This document shows, in pieces, positions 1 through 15,952 of a stretch of 64,000 bases of DNA; the stretch's first letter is position 1; each line of letters begins with the position of its first letter. Source of the stretch: a virus (Duplodnaviria; Caudoviricetes); IMG/VR virus record IMGVR_UViG_3300036805_000167, positions 64,001 through 128,000 of that record; one strand, given 5' to 3'. Position numbers and translations under genes: made by a program. The notes below the pieces were generated by a model. That model saw only the letters and a list, made by a program, of their open reading frames with translations, did no database searches and was not told the DNA's origin.

Positions 1-1
1 C

Positions 2-121
2 GACTGCCAGTGCGGCGAGGACTGGCTGCCCGCCCGGTTCCCGACCTGGGAGACGGCCTACCGGGTGGCCGACGACCACGCGCGGGTGTCGCACAAGACC
101 GACCGGCGGTGGCGGCGATGA
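2..121 (+). CDS. 3' end of small CxC/His-containing hypothetical protein (partial)
   Basis: Manual translation DCQCGEDWLPARFPTWETAYRVADDHARVSHK...; TGA overlaps ATG at 118 (ATGA coupling). Confidence 0.45.
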   Translation, partial: DCQCGEDWLPARFPTWETAYRVADDHARVSHKTDRRWRR

Positions 122-630
122 AAACGATCCTGCTGCTGCTCATCGCCGGCCTGGCCGTGGCGATCGTGAAGGCGCACCCCGCAGCGCTGCTGATCCTGGT
201 GCCGATCGTGCTGCTGCTGTTCCGGGCGCGCTCCAGGGCCACCTCTGGGGCGATGACCGCCCACATCGCACCGGGCCACTACCCGGCCGAGACTGCCCGT
301 CACGAAGCTGGTCACGTCGTCGCCGCTCGCCGAATCGGCGGACGAGTCACCTCGGCGGTGGTCAATCGCGATGGCTCGGGCTACGTGCGCGTGTCCGGCA
401 TGGCGTCCGCTGCTAAGCGCATCGGGTTCCTCCGAGCCGGTGAGTACGCGATCCACTCCGGCCGGGGCGCCTCCGCTGATCGGGCAGCTGTTCGCGCGAT
501 CCTGCGCGAAGTCCCCAAAGCGGACCGCGCCCGAGTGTTGCGCGAGGGCGAGCGCATCGGGCGCTCGGCCGCCCGCAGCTCGAAGGTGTCGGGTGTCGCG
601 TCGAAACTGGCGCGCGACGGGAGGCTCTGA
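118..630 (+). CDS. Membrane-anchored HEXXH zinc metallopeptidase (M41/M50-like), copy 1
   Basis: Start moved to ATG118 (MKTILLLL); N-terminal hydrophobic segments, ARHEAGH motif, later AG...GASAD resembling FtsH GASND; paralog at 9930. Confidence 0.7.
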   Translation: MKTILLLLIAGLAVAIVKAHPAALLILVPIVLLLFRARSRATSGAMTAHIAPGHYPAETARHEAGHVVAARRIGGRVTSAVVNRDGSGYVRVSGMASAAKRIGFLRAGEYAIHSGRGASADRAAVRAILREVPKADRARVLREGERIGRSAARSSKVSGVASKLARDGRL

Positions 631-1259
631 TGACCTGGGCGCGCGGTTCTCTCATCGTCCTGCTGGCGGCCATCGCCGCCGGCGCGCTGACCTTGTCCGC
701 GTCGAGCACGCTCCAGCTCGCGAGCCGCTCCGGCGTGCACAACGTCCAGTTCGCGTCGATCGCCGTGCTCGAGCTCGCCGCCATCGTCGGCACCGTGATG
801 TGGCTGCGCGCGTCGCACTGGCGCAGTCGCGTCGAGGCTGCGCTGCTCGTCGTCGGCGCGTCCGCGGTCACCGCGATCGGGGGCCTGGGCGCCTACGGGC
901 TGTTCGGGCTGGTCGGGCCCGCGTTCCTGGTCGCGTCGGTGCACGTCGCCTCCCGGGAGTGGCGTGCCGAGCCGCACGCCGCGCACGAACCGTCCGCGAC
1001 CGCGCCCGTCGCGCCCGTCGAGCCCTGGGGTCCGCCCGAGACCGTGCCCGAGACCGCGCCCGTCGCACCGTCCCCGCCCGCCACCCTGCACGCCGTGCCC
1101 GGGCTCGCACGCGAACGGTCCGACGGGCTCGACGCGCTCTCCCGCGACGACCTGCGCGAGCTCGCGAAGACGCGAGGCGTGACCCAGCGCGGCAGCGCGG
1201 ACGAGCTGCGCGTGCGGCTGCGTGCGGCGACCGCACCGAACCGGGAGGCCAGCGCATGA
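630..1259 (+). CDS. Spd/DUF2637-like multi-TM protein with C-terminal SAP-like DNA-binding domain, copy 1
   Basis: Four hydrophobic segments, Pro-rich linker, LSRDDLRELAKTRGVTQRGSADELRVRL SAP-like helix-extension-helix; translationally coupled. Confidence 0.6.
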   Translation: MTWARGSLIVLLAAIAAGALTLSASSTLQLASRSGVHNVQFASIAVLELAAIVGTVMWLRASHWRSRVEAALLVVGASAVTAIGGLGAYGLFGLVGPAFLVASVHVASREWRAEPHAAHEPSATAPVAPVEPWGPPETVPETAPVAPSPPATLHAVPGLARERSDGLDALSRDDLRELAKTRGVTQRGSADELRVRLRAATAPNREASA

Positions 1260-1714
1260 GCCGCACCACCATGTTCCACAACGGCGTCAAGATCACGGCC
1301 TCGGGCGGTGGCGGCATCGCGTGGCTCGTCGAGCTGATCGCGCTCGTCGGCGCCGTCGCGGGCATCGCCGCGGCGTTCCGGGCGCTGACCGCACCCGAAC
1401 CCGTGCTCGACGCCGCCATCGGGATCACCTTCGACGTCGCGGGCATCCTCGGCGCCCTCGGACTGCTCGGGATCGGGGGCTGGCTCGTCTACGACGCCGC
1501 GGCCTCCCGCGCGGCCGTGCGCCGGTTCGCGACCCACGACGACCGGCTCGACGCGGCCGCCGCGGCACGCCTGGAGCGCACGGCCGTGCGCCCGGCCGTC
1601 GACCCCGCACGCCTGCACGTGCCCGCCGACCGGCTCGACCGCACGGAGACCGTGCCCGCACGCGGCGACGAGGCCCTGGAGCCCGTGCCCGTCGAGCTGG
1701 ACGCGCTGGGCTGA
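1256..1714 (+). CDS. Two-TM membrane protein (transfer/spread module)
   Basis: ATG1256 overlaps previous stop (ATGA); MSRTTMF...; two TM helices. Confidence 0.6.
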   Translation: MSRTTMFHNGVKITASGGGGIAWLVELIALVGAVAGIAAAFRALTAPEPVLDAAIGITFDVAGILGALGLLGIGGWLVYDAAASRAAVRRFATHDDRLDAAAAARLERTAVRPAVDPARLHVPADRLDRTETVPARGDEALEPVPVELDALG

Positions 1715-1716
1715 CC

Positions 1717-3462
1717 ATGTCCGATCATCCCGTCGTGCGGGCGGCACGGTTCGCGGTCGGACACCCGCTGGACGGCACTCACCGCACCAACGCGGGCTGG
1801 ACGAAGCCTGGCACCGCACCGTACGACCCGGACCGTGCGGGCTGGTGGGCGCACCAGTCGCACCGCCGGCGTTCGGCGATCCGCTGGGGCGCCCTGCTCG
1901 GGATCACGGCCGCGATCATCGGGATCCTGCTCGCTCCGGGCGCGACCGCGTCCACGCTGCGCATCCCGGTCTGGTTCGGGATCGTCACCGCGGTCTACGT
2001 GGTGGTGCACAAGACCCGGCGCTGGGAGCACTACAAGCGCTGGATCGAGGCGATCGCGCTCGCGGTCGGCCCGCTGCTGGACATGCCCCGGCGCCGCAAC
2101 CCGCGCGAGTGGATTCACGTCCCGATCGGGCACCAGGACGACCCCGACAAGCCGGTGCTGCTCACGCTGCCCGAGAACTTCGCGATGAACGAGACGCGCC
2201 GCGAGCGTCTCGCCCTGCTCACGGCCGCGGTCGCGGGCGTGCAGAACCCGTTCTGGCAGTTCGACCTCGAAGCGCGCCCGCCGACGCTGCTGGTCTCGGC
2301 GATCCCGCAGCCGCCCACGCTGGTGGTGTTCTCCGAGATCGTGCGCGAGTGGGAGAACGCCGCCGACGACGAGCTGATCATCGGACTGGCCGCGGGCGGC
2401 GTCCCCGCCCGGGTGAGCCTGGGCGGGGACTCCCCGCACATCCTGTGCTCGATGGGCTCGGGTGGGGGCAAGTCCGAGTTCTGCGCCGGGATCGCGCTCC
2501 AGATGCGGCGCAAGGCCCGGCCCGCGCGGGTGATCTACATCGACGTGATCAAGCGCGGGGCGTCGGCGAAGTGGGCCAAGGGCGTCGACGGCATCGAGGT
2601 CATCCGCTCCACCGCGCTCGCCCACGACCTGCTGCTCGAGCTGTTCGCACAGGTCCAGGCCCGGTGCGAGAGCTACTGGGACCACGGCTACGACGCCGAG
2701 CAGCAGCGCGTGCTGATCATCGTCGACGAGGCGAACCGCACCACCCGCGAGCTGACCCGCTACTGGCGCGCGGAGTGCGAGGGCAAGGGCACCTCCCCGG
2801 CCGTGGACGCGATCGAGGGCATCCTGTTCGTCGGGCGCGAGGCGGCCACGCACGTGCTCACCGTCGGGCAGCGGATGTCGGCGGCCGCGTCCGGTGGCGG
2901 CGACGCCCGCGAGGCGTACGGCGTCAAGATCGGGAACCGGTTCTCGCCGCAGACCGCGCGGATGCTGTTCGGTGACGTCGGCGACGGCCGAGCCTCCACG
3001 CTGCCCCGCTCGTCGAACCACCCGGGACGCGTCCAGGTGGTCACCGGCGGCAGCGCGGTCGCCGTCCAGGTGCCGCTGTCGACCGACCGGGCCACGAAGG
3101 CGCTGCTGCCCGGGCCCGCGGCCTGGATCGCCGACGCGCCCCCGCTCGTCGTGCAGAGCGTCCGCCCAGCGATGTCGCCCAACACCGCGCGTGTAGGGGA
3201 TTCGCCGGTTCATGACGTCGGTCGACGTCACCTCGAGCCGGTCCCGAACGCGCCCGCGGACGCCGAGCCGCCCCCGATGTTGATCGCGCTGCCGGATGCT
3301 GTCGAGCAGCTCGACGGCGTGAGCCTGACCGCGCTCAAGAACGCCCGCGCCCGCGACAAGGACTTCCCCGAGCCCGCCCAGAAGGTGGGCCAGACCTACC
3401 TCTACGACCTCGACGAGCTCGCCCGCTGGGCGGCCAACCGCGCACAGGCTGGAGCCCGCTGA
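1717..3462 (+). CDS. TraB/FtsK-SpoIIIE-like DNA translocase, copy 1
   Basis: ATG1717 MSDHPVV; N-terminal TMs, Walker A-like SMGSGGGKS, Walker B VLIIVDE, GREAATHVLTVGQR, PGR motif, C-terminal wHTH-like YLYDLDELARW. Confidence 0.8.
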   Translation: MSDHPVVRAARFAVGHPLDGTHRTNAGWTKPGTAPYDPDRAGWWAHQSHRRRSAIRWGALLGITAAIIGILLAPGATASTLRIPVWFGIVTAVYVVVHKTRRWEHYKRWIEAIALAVGPLLDMPRRRNPREWIHVPIGHQDDPDKPVLLTLPENFAMNETRRERLALLTAAVAGVQNPFWQFDLEARPPTLLVSAIPQPPTLVVFSEIVREWENAADDELIIGLAAGGVPARVSLGGDSPHILCSMGSGGGKSEFCAGIALQMRRKARPARVIYIDVIKRGASAKWAKGVDGIEVIRSTALAHDLLLELFAQVQARCESYWDHGYDAEQQRVLIIVDEANRTTRELTRYWRAECEGKGTSPAVDAIEGILFVGREAATHVLTVGQRMSAAASGGGDAREAYGVKIGNRFSPQTARMLFGDVGDGRASTLPRSSNHPGRVQVVTGGSAVAVQVPLSTDRATKALLPGPAAWIADAPPLVVQSVRPAMSPNTARVGDSPVHDVGRRHLEPVPNAPADAEPPPMLIALPDAVEQLDGVSLTALKNARARDKDFPEPAQKVGQTYLYDLDELARWAANRAQAGAR

Positions 3463-3464
3463 CC

Positions 3465-4217
3465 ATGCCCATGAAGGCGACCCACCAGGCCGGCGCCGCG
3501 CCGTGCGCGGTTCTACTCGGCGCGTACGCCCCGGTGCCGTGGCCGGTGGCGATCGGGGTCGGGCTCGCGTGCTGGGGGGTGGCCGCGATCAACGACTGGG
3601 ATCACCCGAACTACACCCGTCGGATGCACCTGGGCGCGATGGCGGTCCGCTGGTCGGCTCGCGCCGGCTACCGCATCCGCACCCGCCACGACCGCCACCG
3701 CACCGACCTGCACCGCGGCCCGTCGCACTCGCTGGAGTGGTGCGCGATGTTCGGGCTCGCGGTCGGGGTGCTGGCCAGCCTCGCATTCGGGTACTGGGGC
3801 GAGGCCGGGTGGGGGCTGTGGTTCGGGATCGCGGTCGCGACGGGGACGGCCTCGCACGTGCTGCTGGACTGGATGACGCCCTCGGGGGTCCCGCTCTCGG
3901 CGCTCTACAACGTGACGCTCTACCCGCTGCTGCGCCGCGGCCGGAACCGTCAGGTCTGGCGCCGCCACGCGTGCGGCTGGTGGGTGCCGTTCTACGAGGT
4001 GTCGTTCTGGCTGCGCTGGATCCGTCTGCCGCGCCCGATGGCGGTCGACGAGTCCCACCCGGGCTGTACGCCGGGCCTGTTCCACACCGACCGCGGCGGC
4101 GAGCACATGATCGTGGTCCCGATCCTCTACGGGGCGACCGGGGTCATCGTGCTCTCCGTGCTGGGCATCCTCACGCCGGTGATCACGTTCTTGGCCCCGA
4201 TGGTGACCGCGCTGTGA
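3465..4217 (+). CDS. YdjM-like membrane metal-dependent hydrolase
   Basis: DWDHP, HRGPSHSL and SHVLLDWMTPSGVP motifs with TM helices. Confidence 0.75.
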   Translation: MPMKATHQAGAAPCAVLLGAYAPVPWPVAIGVGLACWGVAAINDWDHPNYTRRMHLGAMAVRWSARAGYRIRTRHDRHRTDLHRGPSHSLEWCAMFGLAVGVLASLAFGYWGEAGWGLWFGIAVATGTASHVLLDWMTPSGVPLSALYNVTLYPLLRRGRNRQVWRRHACGWWVPFYEVSFWLRWIRLPRPMAVDESHPGCTPGLFHTDRGGEHMIVVPILYGATGVIVLSVLGILTPVITFLAPMVTAL

Positions 4218-4600
4218 GCGCCCGTCGCGCCCAGGGAGCCGCCGAGGGCGGCAAGCGCCGCCACCTGCCCCGCTCCGGGGTGTACAAGGCCTGCCACAAG
4301 TGCCGGGGCTCCGGGCGCGTACACGGCGGCCTGTGGTGCGCGGGCTGCGGCGGGCACGGCATCCGCAAGGTCGGGAACGTCAAGCGCGGGCGCGGGCGAG
4401 GGAAGGGGCCGTCGTGGACGCCGACCGGGCGCAAGCGTGCGAGCCGGAAGCTGGGCAACCGTGCGCTGTGCGTGGGCGGTGCGTACCTGGCCGGGTTCTA
4501 CTTCCTGGGCGCGCTCGGCGGGGTGCTGGTACTGGTCGTGGTGGGGCTGCTGATCGTGTTGCGTGCGGCCGCGTGGGTCACCGAGGCGTCGCACCGGTGA
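4214..4600 (+). CDS. DnaJ-type zinc-finger protein with C-terminal TM
   Basis: GTG4214 coupled; CHKCRGSG...CAGCGGHG; hydrophobic C-terminus. Confidence 0.6.
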   Translation: MSARRAQGAAEGGKRRHLPRSGVYKACHKCRGSGRVHGGLWCAGCGGHGIRKVGNVKRGRGRGKGPSWTPTGRKRASRKLGNRALCVGGAYLAGFYFLGALGGVLVLVVVGLLIVLRAAAWVTEASHR

Positions 4601-4785
4601 GCGCCGTGCCGGAGGCCGTGCGGACCGTGCGGGCCCGCACGCACGCGGTCACGCTGGCCCAGCGCGCGTGCCGCGCCGCGGACCGGGCGGTCGGGGCGTA
4701 TCTGGCGCACTGCGCGCGGATGGACGCGTGGGAGCGCCGTCGCGACCGCGAACGGCGGCGACGGCGCTCGTCACGGGCGCGCTAG
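4597..4785 (+). CDS. Hypothetical protein
   Basis: GTGA-coupled start, last gene of operon. Confidence 0.4.
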   Translation: MSAVPEAVRTVRARTHAVTLAQRACRAADRAVGAYLAHCARMDAWERRRDRERRRRRSSRAR

Positions 4786-4953
4786 CCGGCGCGCCATCCG
4801 CGCGACGTCGTTGCCCGAGTACAGCGCGACCGTGGTCTTGCCGTAGCCGTTGGAGTAGCTGCCCACGGGCGAGAGCTGAGCCTTGACCGTCGCGGCCGGG
4901 ACGCCGATCTGTGCGACCGCTTCCTCGAGCGTGAGCAGGGTGTCGACGCTCAT
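4771..4953 (-). CDS. Small HTH/excisionase-like DNA-binding protein (paralog of 15779)
   Basis: MSVDTLLTLEEAVAQIGVPAATVKAQL...VALYSGNDVARMAR; clear paralog at 15779. Confidence 0.65.
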   Translation of the reverse strand: MSVDTLLTLEEAVAQIGVPAATVKAQLSPVGSYSNGYGKTTVALYSGNDVARMARRLARP

Positions 4954-5168
4954 CGTTCGTCCTCCGCGATCCGGGCGACCTCGGCGATTGCCTCCGCCGT
5001 GGCATGGTCGGTGACCCGCTCCGGGACGACGACAAGCTCCGGGTCGCGGCCCACGCGGATCGCGCACACCATGTGCCCGGAGTCGGAGATACCGAGCACC
5101 ACCCGGTACGACGGGTAGCCGGCCGGACCGGGTGCGGTGCCGGTCAGGATCAGCGGTTCCTCGATCAT
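4950..5168 (-). CDS. Hypothetical protein
   Basis: MIEEPLIL..., coupled overlaps on both sides. Confidence 0.5.
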   Translation of the reverse strand: MIEEPLILTGTAPGPAGYPSYRVVLGISDSGHMVCAIRVGRDPELVVVPERVTDHATAEAIAEVARIAEDER

Positions 5169-5344
5169 CGCAAGAACACCTCCAAGATCACGCTGGTGAG
5201 TACGAACAGGGCGAACAAGGCGACCGCGAGCGAGAGCACCCGGATCGGGAAGTAGTCGACGACCCCCGCGCCGCAGCGCGGGCACCGGGTCACGACGCCG
5301 GCCGTGCGCACGCGTTCGCGGCACGACTGGCAGGTCTCAGTCAC
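5165..5344 (-). CDS. Zinc-ribbon plus TM small protein
   Basis: CQSC...CPRC then hydrophobic helix. Confidence 0.5.
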   Translation of the reverse strand: MTETCQSCRERVRTAGVVTRCPRCGAGVVDYFPIRVLSLAVALFALFVLTSVILEVFLR

Positions 5345-5483
5345 GGTCGACCTCCAGCTCGTCGCGATAGTGCAGGTACAAGTAGTGCCCGCACATGCAG
5401 ACGCCCGGCTCCTCGATGCCGACCTTGGCACCGTTGTGGACGGGCTCGGTGCAGCCACAGACGCAGGCGTCGCGCTCGGTCAT
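5337..5483 (-). CDS. Small Cys/His-rich protein
   Basis: MTERDACVCGC...CMCGH. Confidence 0.5.
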   Translation of the reverse strand: MTERDACVCGCTEPVHNGAKVGIEEPGVCMCGHYLYLHYRDELEVDRD

Positions 5484-5686
5484 CGTTCGGCCTCCAGCTC
5501 GTCGGCGCGTCGACCCAGGCGATTGCCCATCACGTTGAACCCTTCGGCGTAACAATCCTCGGACCACTTCCGTAGCTCGGCGATCAGGACCGGGCGAGCG
5601 ATGGCGTCAACACGAGAAGCGTCGGGCACAAGATCGAAGTTGCGCAGTGCCTCGATTGCCTCGTCGGGGATGTGCAGTTCAGTCAT
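5480..5686 (-). CDS. Phage hypothetical protein
   Basis: MTELHIPDEAIEA...; coupled. Confidence 0.55.
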   Translation of the reverse strand: MTELHIPDEAIEALRNFDLVPDASRVDAIARPVLIAELRKWSEDCYAEGFNVMGNRLGRRADELEAER

Positions 5687-5847
5687 CGGGGCTCATTCCG
5701 TTCTAGCCAGTCGATGTGCCGCTCATAGGCCTCACGGCGCATACGATCGAGGTTGGCTTCGGACTCCTCGGCCACGGCGAGAACATCCGGACACGGTGAT
5801 GGCCGACCGCAAGTCGAGCAGCGCTTCACGTCGTCGACATCGCTCAT
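5683..5847 (-). CDS. Small hypothetical protein (CxxC)
   Basis: MSDVDDVKRCSTCGRPSPC. Confidence 0.5.
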   Translation of the reverse strand: MSDVDDVKRCSTCGRPSPCPDVLAVAEESEANLDRMRREAYERHIDWLERNEPR

Positions 5848-6023
5848 CGCCGCACCTCGGACTCTGCGCGGTACCAGCGGTAGCCCGCGCCCGCGACCAG
5901 TACGTGAACCCAGCGCTGACCGCACCAGCACGTCACGGCCCCGCGGGCGAACCCGAACCCGCGCCGTGGAGTCGGCGCGCAGCGGTGCCCGAGCGCGTGG
6001 GCGATCTTGGTCCTAGCCCTCAT
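5844..6023 (-). CDS. Small hypothetical protein
   Basis: MRARTKIAHALGHRC...CWCGQRW; coupled. Confidence 0.45.
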   Translation of the reverse strand: MRARTKIAHALGHRCAPTPRRGFGFARGAVTCWCGQRWVHVLVAGAGYRWYRAESEVRR

Positions 6024-6231
6024 CGTGATCTGTCTCCTCGTCCGTGTTCTCGCTGAGCCAGCGCGCGATCGTGTTGCGGTGCACACCGGTGATCGCGGCC
6101 ATGCGCAGTCCAGAGATGCCGCTGACGGCGCCGCCCTGTACGAGCTCGACGAGCGTGGCGTGCTCGCGCTCGGTGTTCGTAGTGCTCGCGTGCCAGCGGC
6201 GGGCCTGCTCGGCGATGGTGGCTTCGTCCAT
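6013..6231 (-). CDS. HTH transcriptional regulator
   Basis: GISGLRMAAITGVHRNTIARWL HTH; divergent from 6279. Confidence 0.7.
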   Translation of the reverse strand: MDEATIAEQARRWHASTTNTEREHATLVELVQGGAVSGISGLRMAAITGVHRNTIARWLSENTDEETDHDEG

Positions 6232-6242
6232 GCGAGCCAGTA

Positions 6243-6278
6243 TTGCACACTGCACCAGTGCAGTGCTACTGTGGGCAC
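6243..6278 (+). promoter_or_regulatory. Leaderless promoter TTGCAC-N18-TACTGT with operator palindrome CACTGCAC-ca-GTGCAGTG (6248-6265)
   Basis: Read directly; ATG 6 nt after the -10; lies between divergent genes. Confidence 0.6.
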
Positions 6279-6494
6279 ATGAGCACAGACACCTTCCCGC
6301 TCGACCTCCGAGTCGGGTGCCAGCACTGCGGCGATGTCGCCTGCGTGGCCGCGTACGTGATCTCGGCCGAGGCCGAGGACGGCGGCGAGCCCGTGCATGT
6401 CGGCACTCGCTGCCTGCGCACGGCCGTGGCCTTCATGTCGTACACGGCCATCCACCGGACCGGTCCGGTCTACATCGAGGGCGTGACGGCATGA
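6279..6494 (+). CDS. Hypothetical protein (CxxC)
   Basis: MSTDTFPLDLRVGCQHC; follows promoter. Confidence 0.55.
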   Translation: MSTDTFPLDLRVGCQHCGDVACVAAYVISAEAEDGGEPVHVGTRCLRTAVAFMSYTAIHRTGPVYIEGVTA

Positions 6495-6670
6495 TCACGC
6501 GGCTCGCGGTCATCACCGCGATCTCCACCGTCGGAGGCATCGTGCTCGCGACCTTGGGCGGTCTCTACGGGATCCCGCTCGCCGGACTGTTCGGCGCGGT
6601 GGCTGCGATGTTCGGCGGCGTGCACTTCGGACTGCACTACGCGCCCGGTCAGCACCGGAGTCGGTCATGA
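6491..6670 (+). CDS. Small two-TM membrane protein
   Basis: MITRLAVITAIS...; coupled. Confidence 0.55.
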   Translation: MITRLAVITAISTVGGIVLATLGGLYGIPLAGLFGAVAAMFGGVHFGLHYAPGQHRSRS

Positions 6671-6870
6671 GCGACTACCTCGACCGGCCCGAGACGGTGT
6701 GGGAGTCCGAGCACGACGAATGGCTCGACGAGCTGGAACGCGACCTCGAGCCGCACGTCGGACCCGAGCGCACGCCCGAGGGCGAGCTCACGGAATGGGA
6801 CACGGTCGCGATCGCGGTCGGGGTCATGCGCGACGAGCGCTACGAGCAGGACTTCGGAGGGACGACATGA
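6667..6870 (+). CDS. Acidic hypothetical protein
   Basis: Coupled ORF. Confidence 0.55.
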   Translation: MSDYLDRPETVWESEHDEWLDELERDLEPHVGPERTPEGELTEWDTVAIAVGVMRDERYEQDFGGTT

Positions 6871-8378: not shown

Positions 8379-8463
8379 AGCCACCGCGCCCGAACCCGAG
8401 GGCCACAAGTGGCTGCAGATGCAAGCCATGGTCACGAACGCGACGAGAGAGGACGACGAGTGA
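8314..8463 (+). CDS. Small hypothetical protein sharing the DNDRASTALRVLIDHARAT module
   Basis: GTG8314; duplicated segment of the 6867 gene. Confidence 0.45.
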   Translation: MNADPDNDRASTALRVLIDHARATAPEPEGHKWLQMQAMVTNATREDDE

Positions 8464-8750: not shown

Positions 8751-9013
8751 CCGACGACGACACCACCCCGGAGCAGCGCGACGCCGAACGCGCCCTCGAC
8801 GAAGCCATCCGCAACGCCCACTACGCGTTCGGTGGACGCGGCATGCCCGCAGGGTGGGTCGTGTGCTGCGGCGCCGTCGGCACCGACGACATCTCCGACT
8901 ACTCGTCGGTGAACCTCATGTTCCCACCCGGCGGCCTCCCCTGGCACCACGTCCTGGGGCTCCTCCGCGGCGGCACCCTTCGCTTCGAAGCTGACATGGA
9001 GTCCGATCTGTGA
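8747..9013 (+). CDS. Actinophage hypothetical protein
   Basis: PAGWVVC...LPWHHVLGLL; coupled. Confidence 0.6.
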   Translation: MTDDDTTPEQRDAERALDEAIRNAHYAFGGRGMPAGWVVCCGAVGTDDISDYSSVNLMFPPGGLPWHHVLGLLRGGTLRFEADMESDL

Positions 9014-9372
9014 CCCCGGGACACGACCACGACAACGACGGCGACCACGCCTCCTACAGCCCCGTTATGCCGTTCGTGGCCTGCACCTCGAAAGGCGGAC
9101 CGTACGACGACGACGCCTACGCCGCGGGCTGGCAACTCGGCAAGATCGACGAACAGCTCGAGCAAGCCGCTGACCGCCGCGAGTGGTCCCACATCGTCGC
9201 CACCGTCTTCACCACCAACGTCGAACAGGCCGACCTTGTCGCGATGTGCCACGGTTTCTCGTCGTCGGTGACCGAGACCCACGACGGCGGCTGGTCCGAC
9301 GTCATGTTCTCCCCACCCGTCGAATGGCGGCCCGACGACGAGGCTCCCTCGGCGAAAGTAGAGTCGCCTTAG
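9010..9372 (+). CDS. Actinophage hypothetical protein
   Basis: VMPFVACTSKGGPYDDDAYAAGW; coupled. Confidence 0.6.
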   Translation: MTPGHDHDNDGDHASYSPVMPFVACTSKGGPYDDDAYAAGWQLGKIDEQLEQAADRREWSHIVATVFTTNVEQADLVAMCHGFSSSVTETHDGGWSDVMFSPPVEWRPDDEAPSAKVESP

Positions 9373-9434
9373 ACCTCTCGCCATCAGGGCGAGAGAACCC
9401 CCAGGCGTAAGTCACTTCCCCTGCAGCCTGGGTC

Positions 9435-9473
9435 CGAAGCCCCCGATCCCCACCCCCGGGATCGGGGGCTTCG
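9435..9473. terminator. Stem-loop, 16-bp perfect stem
   Basis: cgaagcccccgatccc / gggatcgggggcttcg at operon end. Confidence 0.7.
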
Positions 9474-9508
9474 TCGTGCGCTGAACGGGTGGCGGAGTTG
9501 AGCCCTGC

Positions 9509-9544
9509 TTGCTCAGGTGTCTCGGAACTGAGACGATTGCGTAC
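9509..9544 (+). promoter_or_regulatory. Leaderless promoter TTGCTC-N17-GACGAT with GTCTC-N6-GAGAC operator (9519-9534)
   Basis: GTG start 7 nt downstream; heads transfer module 2. Confidence 0.45.
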
Positions 9545-9805
9545 GTGCCAGTGACTCGCGCGGAACTCGACGAGGCTCTCGCCTCGCTCCTTGCGGAAGG
9601 CGAGCGCACCGGCGACGTCTACGCCGACACCATCGCCGGGGTCAAGCGCGCCTTGGATCGCCGCAGGACGAACACCCGCGACGGTGGCGTGGCCATCGAG
9701 TGGCTGCGCGACCAAGGGCTGTCCTGGCGTCGGATCGAGACGATCACAGGCGTGGACAAAGAGACCGCGCGCCGCTGGGCGCTGCCGCCGCAGGGGGAGT
9801 CATGA
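9545..9805 (+). CDS. HTH regulator heading transfer module 2
   Basis: LRDQGLSWRRIETITGVDKETARRW HTH. Confidence 0.7.
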   Translation: MPVTRAELDEALASLLAEGERTGDVYADTIAGVKRALDRRRTNTRDGGVAIEWLRDQGLSWRRIETITGVDKETARRWALPPQGES

Positions 9806-9933
9806 CCAGGCCAGGTGATCCGTCCGAGCAGCGTCAGCGCTGGGCAGCCGAGAGCGAGCGCGTCCGCGCCGAGGTCCGCGAGTGGTGCGCTCGGCTTGAC
9901 GAGGCGCGCCGTCAGAAGGAGACGCAGCGATGA
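9802..9933 (+). CDS. Small hypothetical protein
   Basis: MTRPGDPSEQRQRW; ATGA-coupled on both sides. Confidence 0.45.
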   Translation: MTRPGDPSEQRQRWAAESERVRAEVREWCARLDEARRQKETQR

Positions 9934-10442
9934 AGCTGTTGATGGTGCTGCTCATCGCCGGCCTGGCCGTGGCGATGGTGAAGGCACACCCCGCGGCCCT
10001 GCTGGTCCTGGTGCCGATCGTGCTGCTGCTGTTCCGGACGCGCTCCAGGGCCACCTCCGGGGCGATGGTCGCGCACATCGCACCGGGCCACTACCCGGCC
10101 GAGACTGCCCGTCACGAAGCTGGTCACGTCGTCGCCGCTCATCGAATCGGCGGACGAGTCACCTCGGCAGTGGTCAATCGCGATGGCTCGGGCTACGTGC
10201 GCGTGTCCGGCATGGCGTCCGCTGCTAAGCGCATCGGGTTCCTCCGAGCCGGTGAGTACGCGATCCACTCCGGCCGGGGCGCCTCCGCTGATCGGGCGGC
10301 TGTACGCGCGATCCTGCGCGAGGTCCCCAAAGCGGACCGCGCCCAAGTGTTGCGCGAGGGCGAGCGCATCGGGCGCTCGGCCGCCCGCAGCTCGAAGGTG
10401 TCGGGTGTCGCGTCGAAACTGGCGCGCGACGGGAGGCTCTGA
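9930..10442 (+). CDS. Membrane-anchored HEXXH metallopeptidase, copy 2
   Basis: Nearly identical to 118-630; AAGGAG RBS. Confidence 0.7.
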   Translation: MKLLMVLLIAGLAVAMVKAHPAALLVLVPIVLLLFRTRSRATSGAMVAHIAPGHYPAETARHEAGHVVAAHRIGGRVTSAVVNRDGSGYVRVSGMASAAKRIGFLRAGEYAIHSGRGASADRAAVRAILREVPKADRAQVLREGERIGRSAARSSKVSGVASKLARDGRL

Positions 10443-11053
10443 TGACCTGGGCCCGCGGAAGCCTCATCGTCCTGCTCGCCGCCATCGCCGCCGGCGCGCT
10501 GACCCTCTCGGCGTCGAGCACGCTGCAGCTCGCGAGCCGCTCCGGCGTGCACAACGTCCAGTTCTCGTCGATCGCCGTGCTCGAGCTGGCCGCCATCGTC
10601 GGCACCGTGATGTGGCTGCGTGCGTCGCACTGGCGCAGTCGCGTCGAGGCCGCCCTGTTGGTCGTCGGCGCCTCGGCGGTCACCGCGGTCGGCGGCCTCG
10701 GCGCCTACGGGCTGTTCGGACTGGTCGGGCCGGCGTTCCTGGTCGCGTCAGTGCACGTCGCCTCTCGAGAGTGGCGCGCCGAGCCATCCGTGGAAACTGA
10801 CACGCCTGACGAGCTGATGTCAGTCAACGAGCCGAAGGCTGACACGCCTACCGAGCCCTGGGGCGCGCCGGAGACGGTGCCCAGCATCGAGCACCGTGCG
10901 CCGAAGCTGCACGCCGTCGACGACCTGTCCAAGTTGACGTTGCCGCAGCTGCGTGACCTGGCCCGCGCCGAAGGCGCGAGGGTCCGTGGCTCCAAGGCTG
11001 AGGTGGCCGCCGGCATCCGCGCCAACCGGACCGAGCAGGAGGCCAGCGCATGA
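10442..11053 (+). CDS. Spd/DUF2637-like multi-TM protein with SAP/Rho-N-like C-terminus, copy 2
   Basis: N-terminal ~115 aa almost identical to 630-1259; DLSKLTLPQLRDLARAEG...GSKAEV. Confidence 0.6.
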   Translation: MTWARGSLIVLLAAIAAGALTLSASSTLQLASRSGVHNVQFSSIAVLELAAIVGTVMWLRASHWRSRVEAALLVVGASAVTAVGGLGAYGLFGLVGPAFLVASVHVASREWRAEPSVETDTPDELMSVNEPKADTPTEPWGAPETVPSIEHRAPKLHAVDDLSKLTLPQLRDLARAEGARVRGSKAEVAAGIRANRTEQEASA

Positions 11054-11433
11054 GCCGCTGCACCGATCACTGCCCAGCGCCCGGTCGGGGCAGTTGGTGG
11101 CTGTTCGTCGTCGTCTCCACCGTGGTGTTCTCGACCGTCGCCACACTCGTGGTCCGTGGTGCCACTGCCGCGGACGGTGCCGCCGACGCGGTTTTCCAGT
11201 GGCTGCTGATCGCCGCCGGACTGGCGGTCGCCACAGCCGGTGCCGGAGCTATCGCCTGGGGCGTCACCGACACGGTCCGCTCCCGGACGGCGGTCGCCCG
11301 GTTCCAGGTCCACAACGCCACCCTCGGCGCGCGGGCGCTGACGGCGCGGAAGGCTCCGACGGCGCTGCCCGAGGCTCCGGTGTACCGCGCGGACGCCGTG
11401 CGCGTCGCCGAGACCGAGCGCGAGCTGAGCTGA
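11050..11433 (+). CDS. Two-TM membrane protein
   Basis: Positional counterpart of 1256-1714; coupled. Confidence 0.55.
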   Translation: MSRCTDHCPAPGRGSWWLFVVVSTVVFSTVATLVVRGATAADGAADAVFQWLLIAAGLAVATAGAGAIAWGVTDTVRSRTAVARFQVHNATLGARALTARKAPTALPEAPVYRADAVRVAETERELS

Positions 11434-11436
11434 CCC

Positions 11437-11985
11437 GTGCCTCGCGTCGAGCAACGACGTGCTTCCGAGGAGTTCGGGGGCAAGCGCAAGCGCCGTACCC
11501 CCGGCCGTCGAGAGACGTCGTGGCAGCGCACGTCGCGGCGTGCGGGCAACGTGTTCCGCTACGGCCGCAAGGTGCACCGGCGTCACCGCGGCAAGACCGG
11601 GGCTGTGCTGTTCCTGGTGTCCTGCGCCGGCATCGCCGCGTCGATGGTTGCGTTCCAGGGCGCCGTGCAGCTCGTGACGATCGGGGCGTGCGGCGCGGGC
11701 ATGGTCGGCGGTTACGTGCTGGACCGGCGTGCGCACGCCAAGAGCGCACAGTCGACACGGCGGGTGTCGTTCGCCGACCGACGCCGTTACGCCACGAACC
11801 GTGCTGCTGGGCGTGCGTTCGATGACGACGACCCGTCGAGCACGCGTGTGCGGGTGCGGTCGCACACCCGTGACGGTGACGGCGTCGGCACGCACACCCG
11901 CGCACGCCCCGGCGCGCACGGCACAGCTGCGAAGCGTGCTGATCGGTGGGGTACCGAGGTCGACGACGAAGGGGGCACGGCGTGA
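11437..11985 (+). CDS. Basic membrane protein
   Basis: Arg-rich with two TM helices; VRVRSHTRDG..V..HTR motif. Confidence 0.5.
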   Translation: MPRVEQRRASEEFGGKRKRRTPGRRETSWQRTSRRAGNVFRYGRKVHRRHRGKTGAVLFLVSCAGIAASMVAFQGAVQLVTIGACGAGMVGGYVLDRRAHAKSAQSTRRVSFADRRRYATNRAAGRAFDDDDPSSTRVRVRSHTRDGDGVGTHTRARPGAHGTAAKRADRWGTEVDDEGGTA

Positions 11986-14900
11986 CCGTCACCGACGACC
12001 CGAGTACCGCTGTCGCCCGCCGGCCGGTCGGTGAGCTGGTGCTGTACGGACCCCTGGACGCCGCCGACACGCTGGTCTACGGCGCGCAGTCGGTGGTGGT
12101 GGGTGCGCTGGCGTTCATCTACCAGGACTGGTTGCCGTGGGTCCGCGACGACGCCCACACCGAGCGGCTCGACAAGGCCGACCGGATCGCCGGGGCCGCC
12201 GGGGGGCGGTTGTCGCTGCGGGAGCGTGAGGCGTGGCGGGAGCGCCGGGACCGGCGGATGCGTCGCACCTGGCAGGCCGTGTCGCTGTGCGTGCTGCTGG
12301 CCGTGGCGACGTGCGTGTCGGGGTTCGCGCCGTGGCCGTCGATCGGGTACGGGCTGGCCGTGACGGCCGTGATGGTCGTGCTCGCGCTGGTGGTCGACTC
12401 GAAAGAGGCGTCACGGTGGCTGCTGCGGCTGTGCGTGCTGCCGTGCGTGTGCTCCGTGCCGTTCGGTATCACGACGTGGCGGTGGTGGCCCGCGGCCGTG
12501 CTGTGCGTGCTGGCCGTGGCGGTGTGCGTGTGGCGTGGCCTGAACGTCACGCCACCGGCACGCCGTGACGGTGGCGGCCCGAAGCTGACCCGCCGGGACT
12601 GGGCGACGTTGTGGGCCTCGGCGTCGGGCGTGCTCGCCGAGCGTGGCAAAGAGCTGGAGCGCACCGGTGACGCACACCCGATCAGCGCGGACGGCACAGA
12701 GCTCGGTGCCGGGTTCGGAGCTCGATGCGCCGACCCCGTGAGCCCGGACGACGTGCGTGCCCTGGAGCGCAATCTCGGGTTCCCGGTGGGCTCCTCGGCG
12801 TGGGTGCCGAACCCGAAGGCCGCGGGCACCGGGGAGCTGCGGCTGCTCTGGGCCGACCCGCTGCCGCCGAAGGCGATGCCGCGCCGGGAGCCGATGTCGC
12901 TGTCCTACACCCGGCCGTTCGAGGTGGCCCGACGCACCGGGGGCCGCGTGACGTCACTGAGCCTGAATCGGACACGCATGCTTTTTGCGGGCAATTCGGG
13001 GTGTATTGCGCCATGGACGCGCATCTACCTCCCCGACCGCGACGAGCACGTTCGTGTCGATGATCTCGCCGCAGCCGGAGAGGCAGTCACAGTCCAGGCA
13101 TGGGATCCGTCTCGTGGCTGGGTTCGGGCTCAGACTCACGGGCCCCCGTACGTAAAAGGGACCGCGGCTTTGTATGAGGTGCGGTGCTCGGACGGGGCCA
13201 CCATGACAGTGACGGGTCAGCACCGGTTCCTGACCCCGACAGGATGGCGTCGACTCGACTCGTTGCGCGCTGGACAGCTTCTCGCCGCACCTGCTCGCGC
13301 CGGTGGGCAGGGAGCTTCGGGATACCCGTCAGGGTCGTGCGTAGGTGCTCCGCGTTCGACGGGAACAGGCGCAGGTTGTCCGGGTGGTTGTTCGATGTGT
13401 CGCCGTCACGATGGTCGATCACCTCGTCCGGCGTCAGGTATCGGCCGAGCCGGTCTTCCATCACGACGCGGTGGACGGACACGTGGCCGTCCCATCGTTT
13501 CGCCTGAGGATGCTCCGGCATCCGCACGCTCACGTAGCCGTGCTTGTCGACGTGATAGCCCCGTAGCTGGGTGTTCCGTGACAGGGGCACAGCCTGGTTG
13601 CGGATCGGCACGCCCTGTTCCGGAAGCTGTCGGTACAGCCACTTCCACCCCACGCCCAGCTCTCCTGCGATGGGGCGGAGCCCCCAGCCCTGCTGGTACA
13701 GCTCGACGGCTCGCACGAGGGTGGTGGGGTCCAGCATCCGTGCAGTCTCTGCTGGTGTCTTCCCGTTCGTTTTTCTCACTGGCCACCCCAGCTTGGCGAA
13801 CTGCTGACTCACGGCCGTCTGAGTCACTCCGCAGCGCCTCGCAACTTCCGTGCAGGGCAACAACTCCTCAGTGTGCAGGCGGTACGCATCTCTTACTGAC
13901 ATCGACCACGTCGTTTCCTTCGGCACCACTTGATGGTACCAGGTGGCTCCGGATAGAGAGCGTTACACCTGCTGGTAAAGGTGTGTATTACGACCTGACG
14001 GTGCCTGGTCCTGAGTGCTACGTGGCCGAGGGGCTGCTAAACCACAACAGTGGGAAGTCGCAGGCGCTGCAGGATGTGCTGGACGCGGTGTGCGACATGC
14101 CCGACGCGACGTGGTCGGCGATCGACCGCCAGGAGGGCCCGACGTTCAAGGCGTATCGCAATCAGTGGAACCGCACCGGCACCTTCCACGAGAGCGACGA
14201 CGCGCTAGGTGAGATCAAGCGGCTCCGGGCGCTGTGCAAGCAGCGCAACCGCCGTCTCGACGAGGGCATGGATGCCGACCTGGACGGCGAGGTCGACCAG
14301 TGGTGGATCGTCGACGAATCCGGCGAGACCCCGGACCGCCGCGGGCACGTGCTGTTCATCGATGAGCTGTCCTCGGCGACCACCGATAAGGAGTTCGCCG
14401 AGAACCTGACCCTGCTGCTCGAGGTGTGCCGCAAGTCGAGCGTGTCGGTGGTGATGGCCAGCCCCGACCTGGATACCAACCGCGTGCCGCGGGCGGTGCT
14501 CGACCAGGTCAACGTCACGGTCGGGTTCGCCTGCCCGTTCTCGGATGCGGTGCAGATGTTCGGCAAGGGCTCGACGCAGTCTGGCTGGGAGCCGTACTCG
14601 CTGGTCACGGCCACTGACGACGAGCCCAACGACGCCGGCAAGGCGTTTATCCGCGGCGGCGGCTACAACCTGCCCGAGCTGCACCGCTTCGGCGCGATGG
14701 ACCGCGAGGAGATCGTGGCGCGCAACCGCGCGCGGCGGCTGTGGCGCGAGCGGATGGGGATGAGCGCTGACGTCACGCCGGACGACGTCGAAGACGCCGA
14801 GATCGTCAGCGACGAAGAGATGGCGATCCGCGCGGCGCTGGAACTCTGCGGCGACCGCGCCGGACTTCCGGTCGCCGAGGCGAAGAAGTCCCTGACTGAC

Positions 14901-15029
14901 GCACAGATCGCGTCGGTGCGGTCGGTGGCCCCGTCCCGCCCGACGCACGACCCCGGCGCGCGTCAGTCAGTCCGCGCGTACCGGCGGGAAGACCTGGTCA
15001 GCGCGTTGGAGGCGTTCGACGAGGCCTGA
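11982..15029 (+). CDS. TraB/FtsK-like DNA translocase, copy 2, containing an intein in Walker A
   Basis: GTG11982 with GAAGGGGG RBS; N-terminal TMs; AGNSG|intein|SGKS; Walker B HVLFIDE; C-terminal RAYRREDL. Confidence 0.8.
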   Translation: MTVTDDPSTAVARRPVGELVLYGPLDAADTLVYGAQSVVVGALAFIYQDWLPWVRDDAHTERLDKADRIAGAAGGRLSLREREAWRERRDRRMRRTWQAVSLCVLLAVATCVSGFAPWPSIGYGLAVTAVMVVLALVVDSKEASRWLLRLCVLPCVCSVPFGITTWRWWPAAVLCVLAVAVCVWRGLNVTPPARRDGGGPKLTRRDWATLWASASGVLAERGKELERTGDAHPISADGTELGAGFGARCADPVSPDDVRALERNLGFPVGSSAWVPNPKAAGTGELRLLWADPLPPKAMPRREPMSLSYTRPFEVARRTGGRVTSLSLNRTRMLFAGNSGCIAPWTRIYLPDRDEHVRVDDLAAAGEAVTVQAWDPSRGWVRAQTHGPPYVKGTAALYEVRCSDGATMTVTGQHRFLTPTGWRRLDSLRAGQLLAAPARAGGQGASGYPSGSCVGAPRSTGTGAGCPGGCSMCRRHDGRSPRPASGIGRAGLPSRRGGRTRGRPIVSPEDAPASARSRSRACRRDSPVAGCSVTGAQPGCGSARPVPEAVGTATSTPRPALLRWGGAPSPAGTARRLARGWWGPASVQSLLVSSRSFFSLATPAWRTADSRPSESLRSASQLPCRATTPQCAGGTHLLLTSTTSFPSAPLDGTRWLRIESVTPAGKGVYYDLTVPGPECYVAEGLLNHNSGKSQALQDVLDAVCDMPDATWSAIDRQEGPTFKAYRNQWNRTGTFHESDDALGEIKRLRALCKQRNRRLDEGMDADLDGEVDQWWIVDESGETPDRRGHVLFIDELSSATTDKEFAENLTLLLEVCRKSSVSVVMASPDLDTNRVPRAVLDQVNVTVGFACPFSDAVQMFGKGSTQSGWEPYSLVTATDDEPNDAGKAFIRGGGYNLPELHRFGAMDREEIVARNRARRLWRERMGMSADVTPDDVEDAEIVSDEEMAIRAALELCGDRAGLPVAEAKKSLTDAQIASVRSVAPSRPTHDPGARQSVRAYRREDLVSALEAFDEA
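13002..14048 (+). mobile_element. Intein (349 aa), Cys1...His-Asn/Ser+1, no in-frame endonuclease
   Basis: Block A CIAPWTRIYL, block B TVTGQHRFLT, block F/G VYYDLTVPGPECYVAEGLLNHN then S; excision restores GNSGSGKS. Confidence 0.93.
13087..13902 (-). CDS. HTH + HNH homing endonuclease nested antisense within the intein
   Basis: VHRVVMEDRLGRYLTPDEVIDHRDGDTSNNHPDNL HNH motif, KHGYVSV, two N-terminal HTH-like segments; GAAGGA RBS upstream of ATG13902. Confidence 0.88.
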   Translation of the reverse strand: MSVRDAYRLHTEELLPCTEVARRCGVTQTAVSQQFAKLGWPVRKTNGKTPAETARMLDPTTLVRAVELYQQGWGLRPIAGELGVGWKWLYRQLPEQGVPIRNQAVPLSRNTQLRGYHVDKHGYVSVRMPEHPQAKRWDGHVSVHRVVMEDRLGRYLTPDEVIDHRDGDTSNNHPDNLRLFPSNAEHLRTTLTGIPKLPAHRREQVRREAVQRATSRVDAILSGSGTGADPSLSWWPRPSTAPHTKPRSLLRTGARESEPEPSHETDPMPGL

Positions 15030-15061
15030 CGATCTGACGCGGCCTGACGTTCGACCTGACG
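15026..15061 (+). repeat. Four CTGACG direct repeats immediately after traB-2 (clt-like candidate)
   Basis: CTGACG at 15026, 15034, 15044 and 15056. Confidence 0.5.
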
Positions 15062-15074
15062 AGGAGATGACACG

Positions 15075-15269
15075 GTGACCGAGCCATCGGGGTACGACAC
15101 GCCGACCGAGGACGACGTCTCGGAAGCGTTCGAGGACGGCTTCCGCGAGGGCATGCAGGCGGCTCGTTGCGGTGATGGCTGCCAGCACCACCGCACATGT
15201 CCGCAGAGCGACGAGTACCGGCTACCGCTGCGGGACAAGCTCAAGTCGCTGTTCGGGGGGCAGCAGTGA
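15075..15269 (+). CDS. Hypothetical protein
   Basis: GAGGAG RBS; CGDGC..H..C. Confidence 0.5.
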   Translation: MTEPSGYDTPTEDDVSEAFEDGFREGMQAARCGDGCQHHRTCPQSDEYRLPLRDKLKSLFGGQQ

Positions 15270-15751
15270 GCCACTCGACGGTGGTTGTGGTCGTCACGGT
15301 GCTGGTCGTCATGCTGGCGCTGTTCGGCTACGGCTTCTACCGCGGCGCCCGCTACGGCGGCAAGCTGTCCGGTGCTGCGCCGCGGCCCTCGCGAGCTCCG
15401 CACCCGGACGGCAAGGGCTGGGACCCGACCGCGGTGTACGTCTACCTCGACGCCGACCAGGCGGTGCTCTACGCCGGCATCTCGTCGGCGCCGCAGATCA
15501 GGGCTCGACAGCACTGGGACGCTCCCGATGAGGTTGAGCTGTGCTCGCAGGTGGCGAACATCCGCGCGCACTGGTTCCCGGACCGCTACGCCGCGCTCTG
15601 TGTGGAATGGGCGCTGATCCACTACTTCGACCCGCCGTACAACAAGGCGCGTAGCGGCAGCTGCGACGCGTGGACCCAGCCGCGCCCGCCGATCGTGCCG
15701 GTGACGGTGAAGATCCCTCGTCGACGGGCGCTGGCGCGCTCCTTGCGCTAG
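15266..15751 (+). CDS. GIY-YIG nuclease with N-terminal TM anchor
   Basis: AVYVYLD...VLYAGIS..PQIRARQH...AALCVEWALI...PPYN; N-terminal VVVVVTVLVVMLALFGY. Confidence 0.7.
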   Translation: MSHSTVVVVVTVLVVMLALFGYGFYRGARYGGKLSGAAPRPSRAPHPDGKGWDPTAVYVYLDADQAVLYAGISSAPQIRARQHWDAPDEVELCSQVANIRAHWFPDRYAALCVEWALIHYFDPPYNKARSGSCDAWTQPRPPIVPVTVKIPRRRALARSLR

Positions 15752-15778
15752 GGCACTCTGAGGCATAGAGTGAGAGTC
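15743..15778 (+). promoter_or_regulatory. Leaderless promoter TTGCGC-N17-TAGAGT-N7-ATG with GCGCTAGGGC site
   Basis: Member of the repeated promoter family. Confidence 0.65.
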
Positions 15779-15952
15779 ATGACCACGGACACGCTCCTCA
15801 CGCTCGAGGAGGCCGCCACTCAGCTCGGTGTGGAACCGGAAGCCGTCAAGGCTCGGCTGCGGCCTGTCGGTTCGTTCACCGAGCCGCCCCGACACACCGT
15901 GGCGCTGTACTCGGCCAACGACGTCGCGCGGATGGCGCGGAAGCCACGATGA
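15779..15952 (+). CDS. Small HTH/excisionase-like protein (paralog of 4771-4953)
   Basis: MTTDTLLTLEEAATQLGVEPEAVKARL...VALYSANDVARMAR. Confidence 0.65.
   Translation: MTTDTLLTLEEAATQLGVEPEAVKARLRPVGSFTEPPRHTVALYSANDVARMARKPR

Follow-up and report, generated by a model that had tools for sequence, protein, structure and literature searches.

Two tailed soil phages probably mis-joined in one metagenomic record, each with a predicted membrane-anchored FtsK/TcpA/Tra-type translocase cassette

Introduction

The Tra protein of plasmid pIJ101 and TraB of pSVH1 are single-protein, FtsK-like motors for the conjugation of double-stranded DNA (dsDNA) that recognize clt/TRS sites. The roles of TraB and of the Spd proteins in the transfer and spread of plasmid dsDNA are established (PMC3583192). 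Phages also carry such motors. The Streptomyces plasmid-phage pZL12/phiZL12 is reported to be a 90-kb plasmid with ParA/ParB and a demonstrated plasmid/lytic cycle (Zhong et al. 2010, J Bacteriol 192:3747, as cited in PMC3583192 and PMC4487206), and it provides the one precedent for the spread of a phage as naked DNA. FtsK-like genes are routinely annotated in the cluster-BE phages of Streptomyces, and one is also annotated in Thermobifida phage P1312 (PMC4569894); many Streptomyces phages are already known to carry a putative FtsK/Tra pump. Here we analyse a window of 64,000 nucleotides, bases 64001-128000 of the 138,777-bp metagenomic IMG/VR record IMGVR_UViG_3300036805_000167 (coordinates are those of the window, except genome positions, which are those of the whole record). 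A preliminary description had interpreted it as one tailed phage with two complete TraB/Spd-type conjugative transfer modules, a hybrid of a phage with a plasmid or with an actinomycete integrative and conjugative element (AICE). Our analysis indicates that the record probably consists of two co-occurring soil phages, A and B, mis-joined at a common repeat, each with a single cassette for a membrane-anchored pump of the FtsK/TcpA/Tra clade.

Evidence for two phages in one record

Self-comparison revealed that the first 127 nt of the record are an exact copy of window 7853-7979 and its last 127 nt an exact copy of window 6998-7124. Both identities end precisely at the borders of a 982-bp repeat, R (6998-7979), defined by self-comparison and by a Logan contig, at which the record crosses from phage A to phage B. 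Such exact end overlaps are what an assembly from a de Bruijn graph with k = 127 leaves behind, 127 being the largest k that metaSPAdes normally uses, and R is therefore a node common to two loops. A 374-aa open reading frame (ORF) of unknown function, without Pfam match (6867-7991, plus strand), contains the chimeric junction: its N-terminal part has a homologous counterpart at the end of the record and its C-terminal part one at the start.

Sequencing depth was taken from one soil-metagenome run that holds 99% of the words of the junction and is probably the source of the record, as one value for each Logan contig mapped to window 5000-10000. On the side of cassette A, a 6831-bp contig (134-6964) has a depth of 70.3; R is a separate contig of exactly 982 bp with a depth of 76.9; and the contigs on the side of cassette B have depths of 21.1 and 11.8. 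Abundance thus differs 3-6-fold on the two sides of R, and the depth of R approximates their sum, which therefore points to two separate genomes and not to one molecule. A second run (X2) held 5% of the junction words, in short fragments, and we drew no conclusion from it.

The record also holds two complete, non-homologous sets of virion genes. The virion operon recognized in the preliminary description is real: the virion and lysis genes of phage B occupy 20519-56479 (minus strand) and include, by PHROGs profiles, the terminase large subunit (E = 1e-80), portal (2e-91), major head (2e-76), and tape measure (1e-99), along with the major tail, minor tail, and head decoration proteins. Its terminase, portal, and capsid belong to phrog_38, phrog_776, and phrog_777, whereas those of phage A belong to phrog_2, phrog_113, and phrog_1650 and are accompanied by a 1555-aa tape-measure homologue and an endolysin. 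Promoter-like motifs are partitioned in the same manner. A pattern search of the whole record found seven sites of the family TTGNNN-N16/17-TAGAGT with an embedded CTAG, all in phage B (window 15743, 56520, 57386, 58302, 60637, 61594, and 62082), whereas TTGCAT-N17-TATGCT was confined to phage A (genome 41918-46409), within repeated intergenic units of 70-110 nt. Many sites of both families directly precede start codons. The promoter at 15743 (TTGCGC-N17-TAGAGT, 15743-15771, plus strand) had been thought to tie the left arm of the window to the phage; it does belong to the TAGAGT family, but all seven sites are in the part that contains cassette B.

Phage A would then comprise genome 128-70997 plus R (~71.9 kb) and carry cassette A as well as a virion operon of its own that lies beyond the window, and phage B would comprise genome 71980-138650 plus R (~67.7 kb), with cassette B and the virion operon of the window. 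They would be different tailed phages of a Streptomyces-like host from the same soil sample. Relatives of the cassette-A ATPase were encountered on 72-73-kb phage-like contigs, which have further genes in common with the left part of phage A.

Could both cassettes and both virion sets instead belong to a single replicon of ~139 kb, either a phage or a phage-plasmid? The record is one contig that CheckV scores as 99% complete, the depth data cover a 5-kb stretch alone, and recombination at R could physically give rise to a cointegrate. Nevertheless, the 3-6-fold change in depth across R (70.3 versus 11.8-21.1), the return of both contig ends into R by exactly k = 127, the two unrelated terminase/portal/capsid sets, the two promoter families, and the size of the single-cassette relatives (~72 kb) all speak for two genomes, and we regard a single replicon as very improbable. 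Two of these points, namely the short extent of the depth data and a possible minority A-B cointegrate, nonetheless weigh against a simple mis-join of two phages. As a consequence of the mis-join, cassette A is not contiguous with the virion operon of the window, from which it is separated by the assembly node R, and the two-module phage of the preliminary description dissolves into the kind of assembly chimera that would invalidate it; this most distinctive feature of the record is an assembly artefact.

A second node common to both phages in the assembly graph, r2, is a 128-nt sequence at 358-485 found by an exact-repeat scan and exactly identical to 10170-10297. These two nodes make formally possible a path in which cassette A would be a separate replicon of ~9.8 kb (486-6997 + R + 7980-10169 + r2) threaded between the phages. 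Its two arcs have unequal depths, however (70.3 versus 11.8-21.1), one Logan contig (134-6964) follows phage A through r2, homologues of ATPase A and of its YdjM neighbour accompany genes of the left part of phage A on a related 72-kb contig from a different sample, and the circle would contain no replication gene. It is thus extremely improbable, and we rejected it on the unequal depth of its arcs, the contig passing through r2 on the path of phage A, and the synteny of the 72-kb relative.

R, identical over 982 bp, and an 862-bp patch of 94% nucleotide identity (112-973 versus 9924-10785), inside which r2 falls, are common to two co-occurring phages that are otherwise strongly diverged. This suggests, by sequence comparison, very recent recombination between them, of which the presence of both segments in both phages would be the expected outcome if the phages were co-resident. 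Alternatively, R may represent near-identical variants collapsed by the assembler onto the more abundant one.

The chimeric 138.8-kb record received a CheckV completeness score of 99%. Records of this chimeric kind can get through completeness filters, and claims that treat the gene content of this one as a single genome (two transfer modules, two virion sets, 139 kb) are unsound. A narrower form of the original claim stands once for each phage: the genome of a tailed phage encodes, in the company of small membrane proteins, an FtsK/TraB-like translocase with a predicted membrane anchor.

Two remotely related predicted translocases

The translocase of phage A, ATPase A (581 aa, 1717-3462, plus strand), was analysed by motifs, profile, and structural model. 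It has Walker A (GSGGGKS) and Walker B (IIVDEAN) motifs in an FtsK/TcpA-fold motor, hydrophobic segments at residues 53-97 predicted to anchor it in the membrane by two transmembrane (TM) helices, and a predicted C-terminal helix-turn-helix (HTH). Searched against PDB, its profile retrieved TcpA of the Clostridium perfringens plasmid pCW3 (E = 1.4e-7) ahead of FtsK, and its model (predicted local distance difference test, pLDDT, 84.0) was matched by Foldseek to FtsK (1.5e-15) and TcpA (5.9e-15). A large protein collection contained 25 relatives, all metagenomic, whose neighbours on phage-like contigs include WhiB, Lsr2, lysin, and HNH genes. Within this family, HTH_17 was detected in 7 of 24 relatives and Pfam FtsK_SpoIIIE in one of 24 (E = 0.018); there were also excisionase-like PHROG matches. 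In the phage collection, a single weak hit, in phage Dagobah, represented type A.

Plasmids offered closer matches. By tblastn, 60 plasmids, 56 of them from Streptomyces, carry near full-length homologues of ATPase A with 31-33% identity, annotated as DUF87, FtsK, 'Tra protein' or pRL2-11. In pRL2, pPR2, pFRL6, and a plasmid of S. goshikiensis, the homologue is the sole FtsK-like gene, and in the first three no other gene gave an FtsK_SpoIIIE signal. It is preceded by a DUF2637 gene in pRL2, pPR2, and pFRL6, and pRL2 also has an upstream GntR gene, a layout that is that of a classic Streptomyces transfer locus. Plasmid pFP1 is organized as GntR, DUF2637, and tra ORF, and there the gene at the tra position is a relative of the phage B translocase. 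At the level of sequence similarity, ATPase A is closest to the putative Tra proteins of linear plasmids.

The translocase of phage B, ATPase B (11982-15029, plus strand), is recognized by motifs and profiles as an FtsK/SpoIIIE-type motor with about four TM helices (hydrophobic segments at residues 96-191 of the extein, predicted) and an intein within its Walker A motif (GNSG/SGKS). The predicted spliced length, 666 aa, is that of an intein-less homologue, P0028, which reads GNSGSGKS without interruption. Pfam FtsK_SpoIIIE was found in 17 of 36 members of this type B family (best E = 3.2e-11), whose profile matched EccC (8.6e-21), TcpA, and FtsK among PDB entries and aligned with pIJ101 Tra over 220 columns (hhalign probability 98.1%, E = 8.8e-14). 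The model of an intein-less homologue (pLDDT 84.2) has a winged HTH at its C-terminus and had the FtsK motor as top fold match. The phage collection contained 89 records with relatives of P0028, all of lytic Streptomyces phages, and type B is ~28% identical over the motor to their 'FtsK-like DNA translocase'.

The intein (349 aa, 13002-14048, plus strand; Pfam Intein_splicing, 42.4 bits) has the features of a class 1 intein: an N-terminal Cys1, a TGQH block B, a terminal HN, and Ser+1 (GNSG/C...TGQH...HN/SGKS), a conserved host motif as insertion point, and an intein-free allele, P0028, that lacks it at exactly that site. No endonuclease was recognizable in frame in the middle of the intein, where the plus frame stays open. 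Antisense to this region lies a 280-aa ORF (13087-13929, minus strand) with HNH_3 (E = 2.9e-10, 40.1 bits versus a cut-off of 24.8) and HTH_23 domains; if it is the homing nuclease, an intein whose nuclease is encoded antisense would be unusual. Another member of the type B family, P0064 (1024 aa), is likewise interrupted by a large insert at this position of the P-loop.

Comparing ATPase A with the extein of ATPase B, BLASTP found no match (E = 2.7), and the two families were linked by profile comparison alone (98.2% probability), which identifies them, at the sequence level, as remote homologues. For both, the top Foldseek matches are the FtsK motor and TcpA (E = 1e-15 to 1e-13), both models have a C-terminal three-helix-plus-hairpin unit, and both proteins combine a predicted N-terminal anchor with an HTH. 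On the basis of these models, both ATPases are predicted membrane-anchored translocases of the FtsK/TcpA fold with a C-terminal HTH. They appear to derive from the single-protein Tra motors of Streptomyces plasmids or to have a common ancestor with these. Their designation as TraB/FtsK proteins in the preliminary description therefore holds for the fold, for the homologues of type A in plasmid tra loci, and for the homology of the type B family with pIJ101 Tra, but not for a direct match to Pfam FtsK_SpoIIIE.

Organization of the two cassettes

The two cassettes, read by codon-bias gene calling and translation, are located approximately where they had first been placed, cassette A at 109-4600 and cassette B at 9545-15952. 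In both, the genes are co-oriented on the plus strand and tightly packed, with overlaps of 1 or 4 nt or gaps of 2-3 nt. Window 1-16000 yielded no match when compared by megablast with phages and plasmids.

Cassette A starts with A1 (109-630), a single-TM protein with a HEAGH motif (Pfam Peptidase_M50B-like, E = 1.1e-5, 25.6 bits versus a cut-off of 26), followed by A2 (630-1259), predicted to have four TM helices and a C-terminal SAP-like tail (SAP, E = 0.061), and by A3 (1256-1714), a small protein with two predicted TM helices known from gene calling and TM prediction. Downstream of ATPase A are A5 (3465-4217), a membrane hydrolase of the YdjM family (Pfam, E = 8.4e-13), and A6 (4214-4600), a basic CxxC..CxxC protein, likely a Zn-ribbon, with a C-terminal TM segment (gene call and TM prediction).

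Cassette B is longer. Its first gene, B0 (9545-9805), encodes an 86-aa protein 79% identical to the product of the gene that immediately precedes cassette A (genome 63601-63867), and relatives of B0 also stand first in the cassettes of loci L010 and L023. It is followed by B1 (9930-10442), a HEAGH protein with one TM helix (Pfam and TM prediction); B2 (10442-11053), with four TM helices and a C-terminal SAP domain (E = 7.4e-5); B3 (11122-11433), a small TM protein (gene call and TM prediction); and B4 (11437-11985), a basic protein with one TM segment that has a homologue directly upstream of the ATPase in L023. Three genes come after ATPase B: B6 (15075-15269), coding for 64 aa, with a 54-aa gene at the same position in L023; B7 (15266-15751), a TM protein with a weak GIY-YIG-like domain (PHROG endonuclease, E = 1.1e-4; Pfam GIY-YIG, E = 0.015); and B8 (15779-15952), whose 57-aa product is 62% identical to that of a phage A gene at 4771-4953 (minus strand). 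A homologue of B7 with 51% identity is encoded downstream of P0028, and GIY-YIG-like proteins recur downstream of type B ATPases.

The cassettes had been considered parallel. Their heads are indeed paralogous, the HEAGH proteins A1 and B1 sharing 94% of their amino acids, the 4-TM/SAP proteins A2 and B2 68%, and the 86-88-aa upstream proteins 79%, but this kinship does not extend to the ATPases, which have no similarity detectable by BLASTP.

The 4-TM proteins had been called Spd-like. This assignment retains their topology and a weak lead towards DUF2637; it has no Pfam basis, the 4-TM proteins giving no match to DUF2637 at E <= 1. The nearest ESM Atlas clusters of B2 are DUF2637 (feature score 0.77, below the 0.9 level; structural TM-score 0.57, over residues 1-149), and A2 showed no BLASTP similarity to the DUF2637 protein of pPR2. 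We therefore call the 4-TM domain DUF2637-like as a lead only, derived from structural comparison. Pfam matches of the small cassette proteins at E <= 1 were sub-threshold noise (TraQ, 0.02; Anti-TRAP, 0.03) and were not used.

In phage A, the gene immediately following the FtsK-like ATPase encodes a YdjM protein, and the same is true of unrelated contigs with either ATPase type; the pairing recurs for both types in other samples (loci L010, L024, and L033); and, in the contexts of type A relatives examined, YdjM is a neighbour in three of four, adjacent in two. The plasmid tra loci inspected contained no YdjM. From this conserved neighbourhood, YdjM looks like a conserved phage-specific partner of the ATPase.

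Comparison with known transfer systems

The plasmid tra loci provide the closest comparison for the motor gene: ATPase A shares 29-33% identity with the proteins of pRL2 (pRL2-11), pPR2, and pFRL6 in alignments covering 81-98% of its length, and, as in these plasmids and pFP1, a 4-TM protein that is DUF2637-like (again as a lead only) is encoded upstream of the ATPase. Unlike those loci, the phage cassettes lack a Kor-type repressor of the GntR family, a NUDIX Pif protein, and a plasmid replication and partition context, and their HEAGH, SAP fusion, and YdjM proteins have no plasmid homologues. Like pIJ101 Tra (KilA) and pSVH1 TraB, the phage ATPases are predicted to associate with the membrane and to combine a motor of FtsK type with a C-terminal HTH, and the type B family aligns well with pIJ101 Tra; on the other hand, no clt repeats were found next to the genes, type A aligns weakly with pIJ101 Tra, and ATPase B is split by an intein. 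TcpA of pCW3 (PDB 6o1w-6o1z) is likewise a membrane-anchored FtsK-like conjugation ATPase and a top fold match of both types, but identity in the structural alignments is 12-16%, and the multi-protein Tcp apparatus of TcpA is absent here.

Among phages, those of cluster BE (Samistivirus; for example, gp106 of Pepperwood) similarly encode a translocase followed by a small membrane protein. They differ in being lytic, in their size of 131-136 kb, in the position of the translocase gene among tRNA genes, and in having no multi-gene membrane cassette. The closest published system is pZL12, which is reported to combine a full tailed-virion operon with a tra locus made of a major tra gene and adjacent genes. 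Unlike pZL12, the phages studied here have genomes of ~68-72 kb in which no ParB or integrase was found.

Each phage encodes its own Prim-Pol+AAA_25 protein and its own DUF3631 protein, families that are common in actinophages too. As for the proposed hybrid with an AICE, the signature of these elements consists of an integrase, an FtsK_SpoIIIE transfer protein, and RepSA, RepAM (DUF3631) or Prim-Pol (PMC3218068). The replication part of this signature is present in each phage through the DUF3631 and Prim-Pol proteins. Phage_integrase and Resolvase, on the other hand, had no match anywhere in the record and, because it contains neither an integrase nor a resolvase, the record is not an AICE by that signature. 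The window contains no tRNA genes either. The phage-plasmid part of the proposal fared no better: ParB_N had no match in the record, in which ParA was not specifically searched for, and nothing shows a plasmid state.

A possible route for phage DNA through the mycelium

What might these translocases do? In the mechanism that we propose, each phage has a single predicted membrane-anchored dsDNA translocase of hexameric type, with N-terminal TM helices, motor, and C-terminal HTH, encoded among small membrane proteins in a translationally coupled cassette that includes a DUF2637-like 4-TM protein with a SAP tail and, in the type A cassette, an additional neighbour, the YdjM membrane hydrolase. 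The pump would dock on phage DNA through its HTH and move double-stranded phage genomes across the membranes or septal cross-walls of the mycelium, so that one adsorption could seed neighbouring compartments without virions. That the pump moves phage dsDNA across mycelial membranes or cross-walls, by analogy with what TraB and Spd do for plasmids, is a tentative proposal, which we hold to be less likely than not. Both translocase types had relatives exclusively in Streptomyces phages within the phage collection, whereas capsid relatives span phages of many actinobacterial hosts (Mycobacterium, Gordonia, Microbacterium, and Arthrobacter), a difference that fits a function tied to the host.

Several observations weigh against this proposal. 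Neither ATPase matched Pfam FtsK_SpoIIIE (PF01580) at E <= 0.01, and a six-frame search of the whole record found no match at E <= 1. The type A family aligned weakly with pIJ101 Tra (hhalign probability 23.5%, E = 8.6e-4), no clt-like repeat array adjoins either cassette, and the HEAGH and 4-TM/SAP proteins B1 and B2 had no match in plasmids by tblastn. To our knowledge, Spd proteins are not recognizable from sequence. Related translocases also occur in strictly lytic cluster-BE phages, for which we know of no conjugation-like role.

The pump may instead have another job, such as the exclusion of incoming plasmid or phage DNA, the clearing or segregation of DNA at septa to bring phage DNA into prespores, or help with genome entry during infection. 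Eighty-nine lytic Streptomyces phages have an FtsK-like translocase and no other transfer genes, the recurrent partner is YdjM and not a known Spd protein, clt-like arrays are absent beside the cassettes, and HerA/FtsK ATPases, as seen among the PDB matches, serve in defence systems too. Yet the ten cassette proteins examined with PADLOC matched no defence model, the closest non-phage homologues occupy the tra position of plasmids, and TraB and TcpA share the TM-motor-HTH architecture. We consider such another job likewise less likely than not.

The cassettes could also be passengers, recently acquired from plasmids or selfish, with no selected role. Their head was recently exchanged between phages (94% identity over 862 bp), cassette B has an intein, an antisense HNH gene, and a GIY-YIG-like gene, and the accessory genes vary among relatives. 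This is quite improbable, however, given that the pairs of ATPase with YdjM and of ATPase with GIY-YIG-like protein are kept at 44-70% identity in phage contigs of other samples, that all reading frames are intact, and that the promoter at the end of cassette B is of the family found in the phage itself.

If phage genomes are indeed pumped through the mycelium, a more general picture could be drawn, although we consider it doubtful as a whole: integrase-less, lytic-looking phages of soil actinomycetes would pump their replicating genomes through septa or hyphal contacts with a plasmid-derived kit. This kit would consist of the FtsK/Tra motor, the DUF2637-like SAP-tailed membrane protein, and the YdjM hydrolase, and would open a route of spread independent of virions; the Tra lineage recruited would differ from one phage lineage to another, and parts of the cassettes would be swapped by recombination. 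Phages A and B add two distant soil phages to the Streptomyces phages with plasmid-type FtsK/Tra pumps, and the YdjM and DUF2637-like/SAP pairings are concrete candidates for probing the spread of naked DNA in mycelial hosts.

Other features of the two phages

Phage B contains an array of the 8-mer CATCGGAG, with 11 copies on one strand within 2.5 kb (window 62126-64629; genome 126126-128629) and none on the opposite strand in the whole record. The copies are distributed in several reading frames, within and downstream of the phage B Prim-Pol gene, far from both cassettes. Phage A has a tight cluster of ACGTCCCAG(C) iterons (genome 52802-52957) at the matching position beside its own Prim-Pol gene. 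Both are likely origins of replication. The CATCGGAG array might also serve the translocase as a docking site or clt, a replication origin fitting at least as well because the Prim-Pol gene adjoins it and because phage A has the analogous ACGTCCCAG iterons.

A sortase gene (Pfam Sortase, E = 2.1e-18) directly follows a 287-aa gene without family match (16038-17506); the pair is situated in phage B between cassette B and the genes for tail fibre and lyase.

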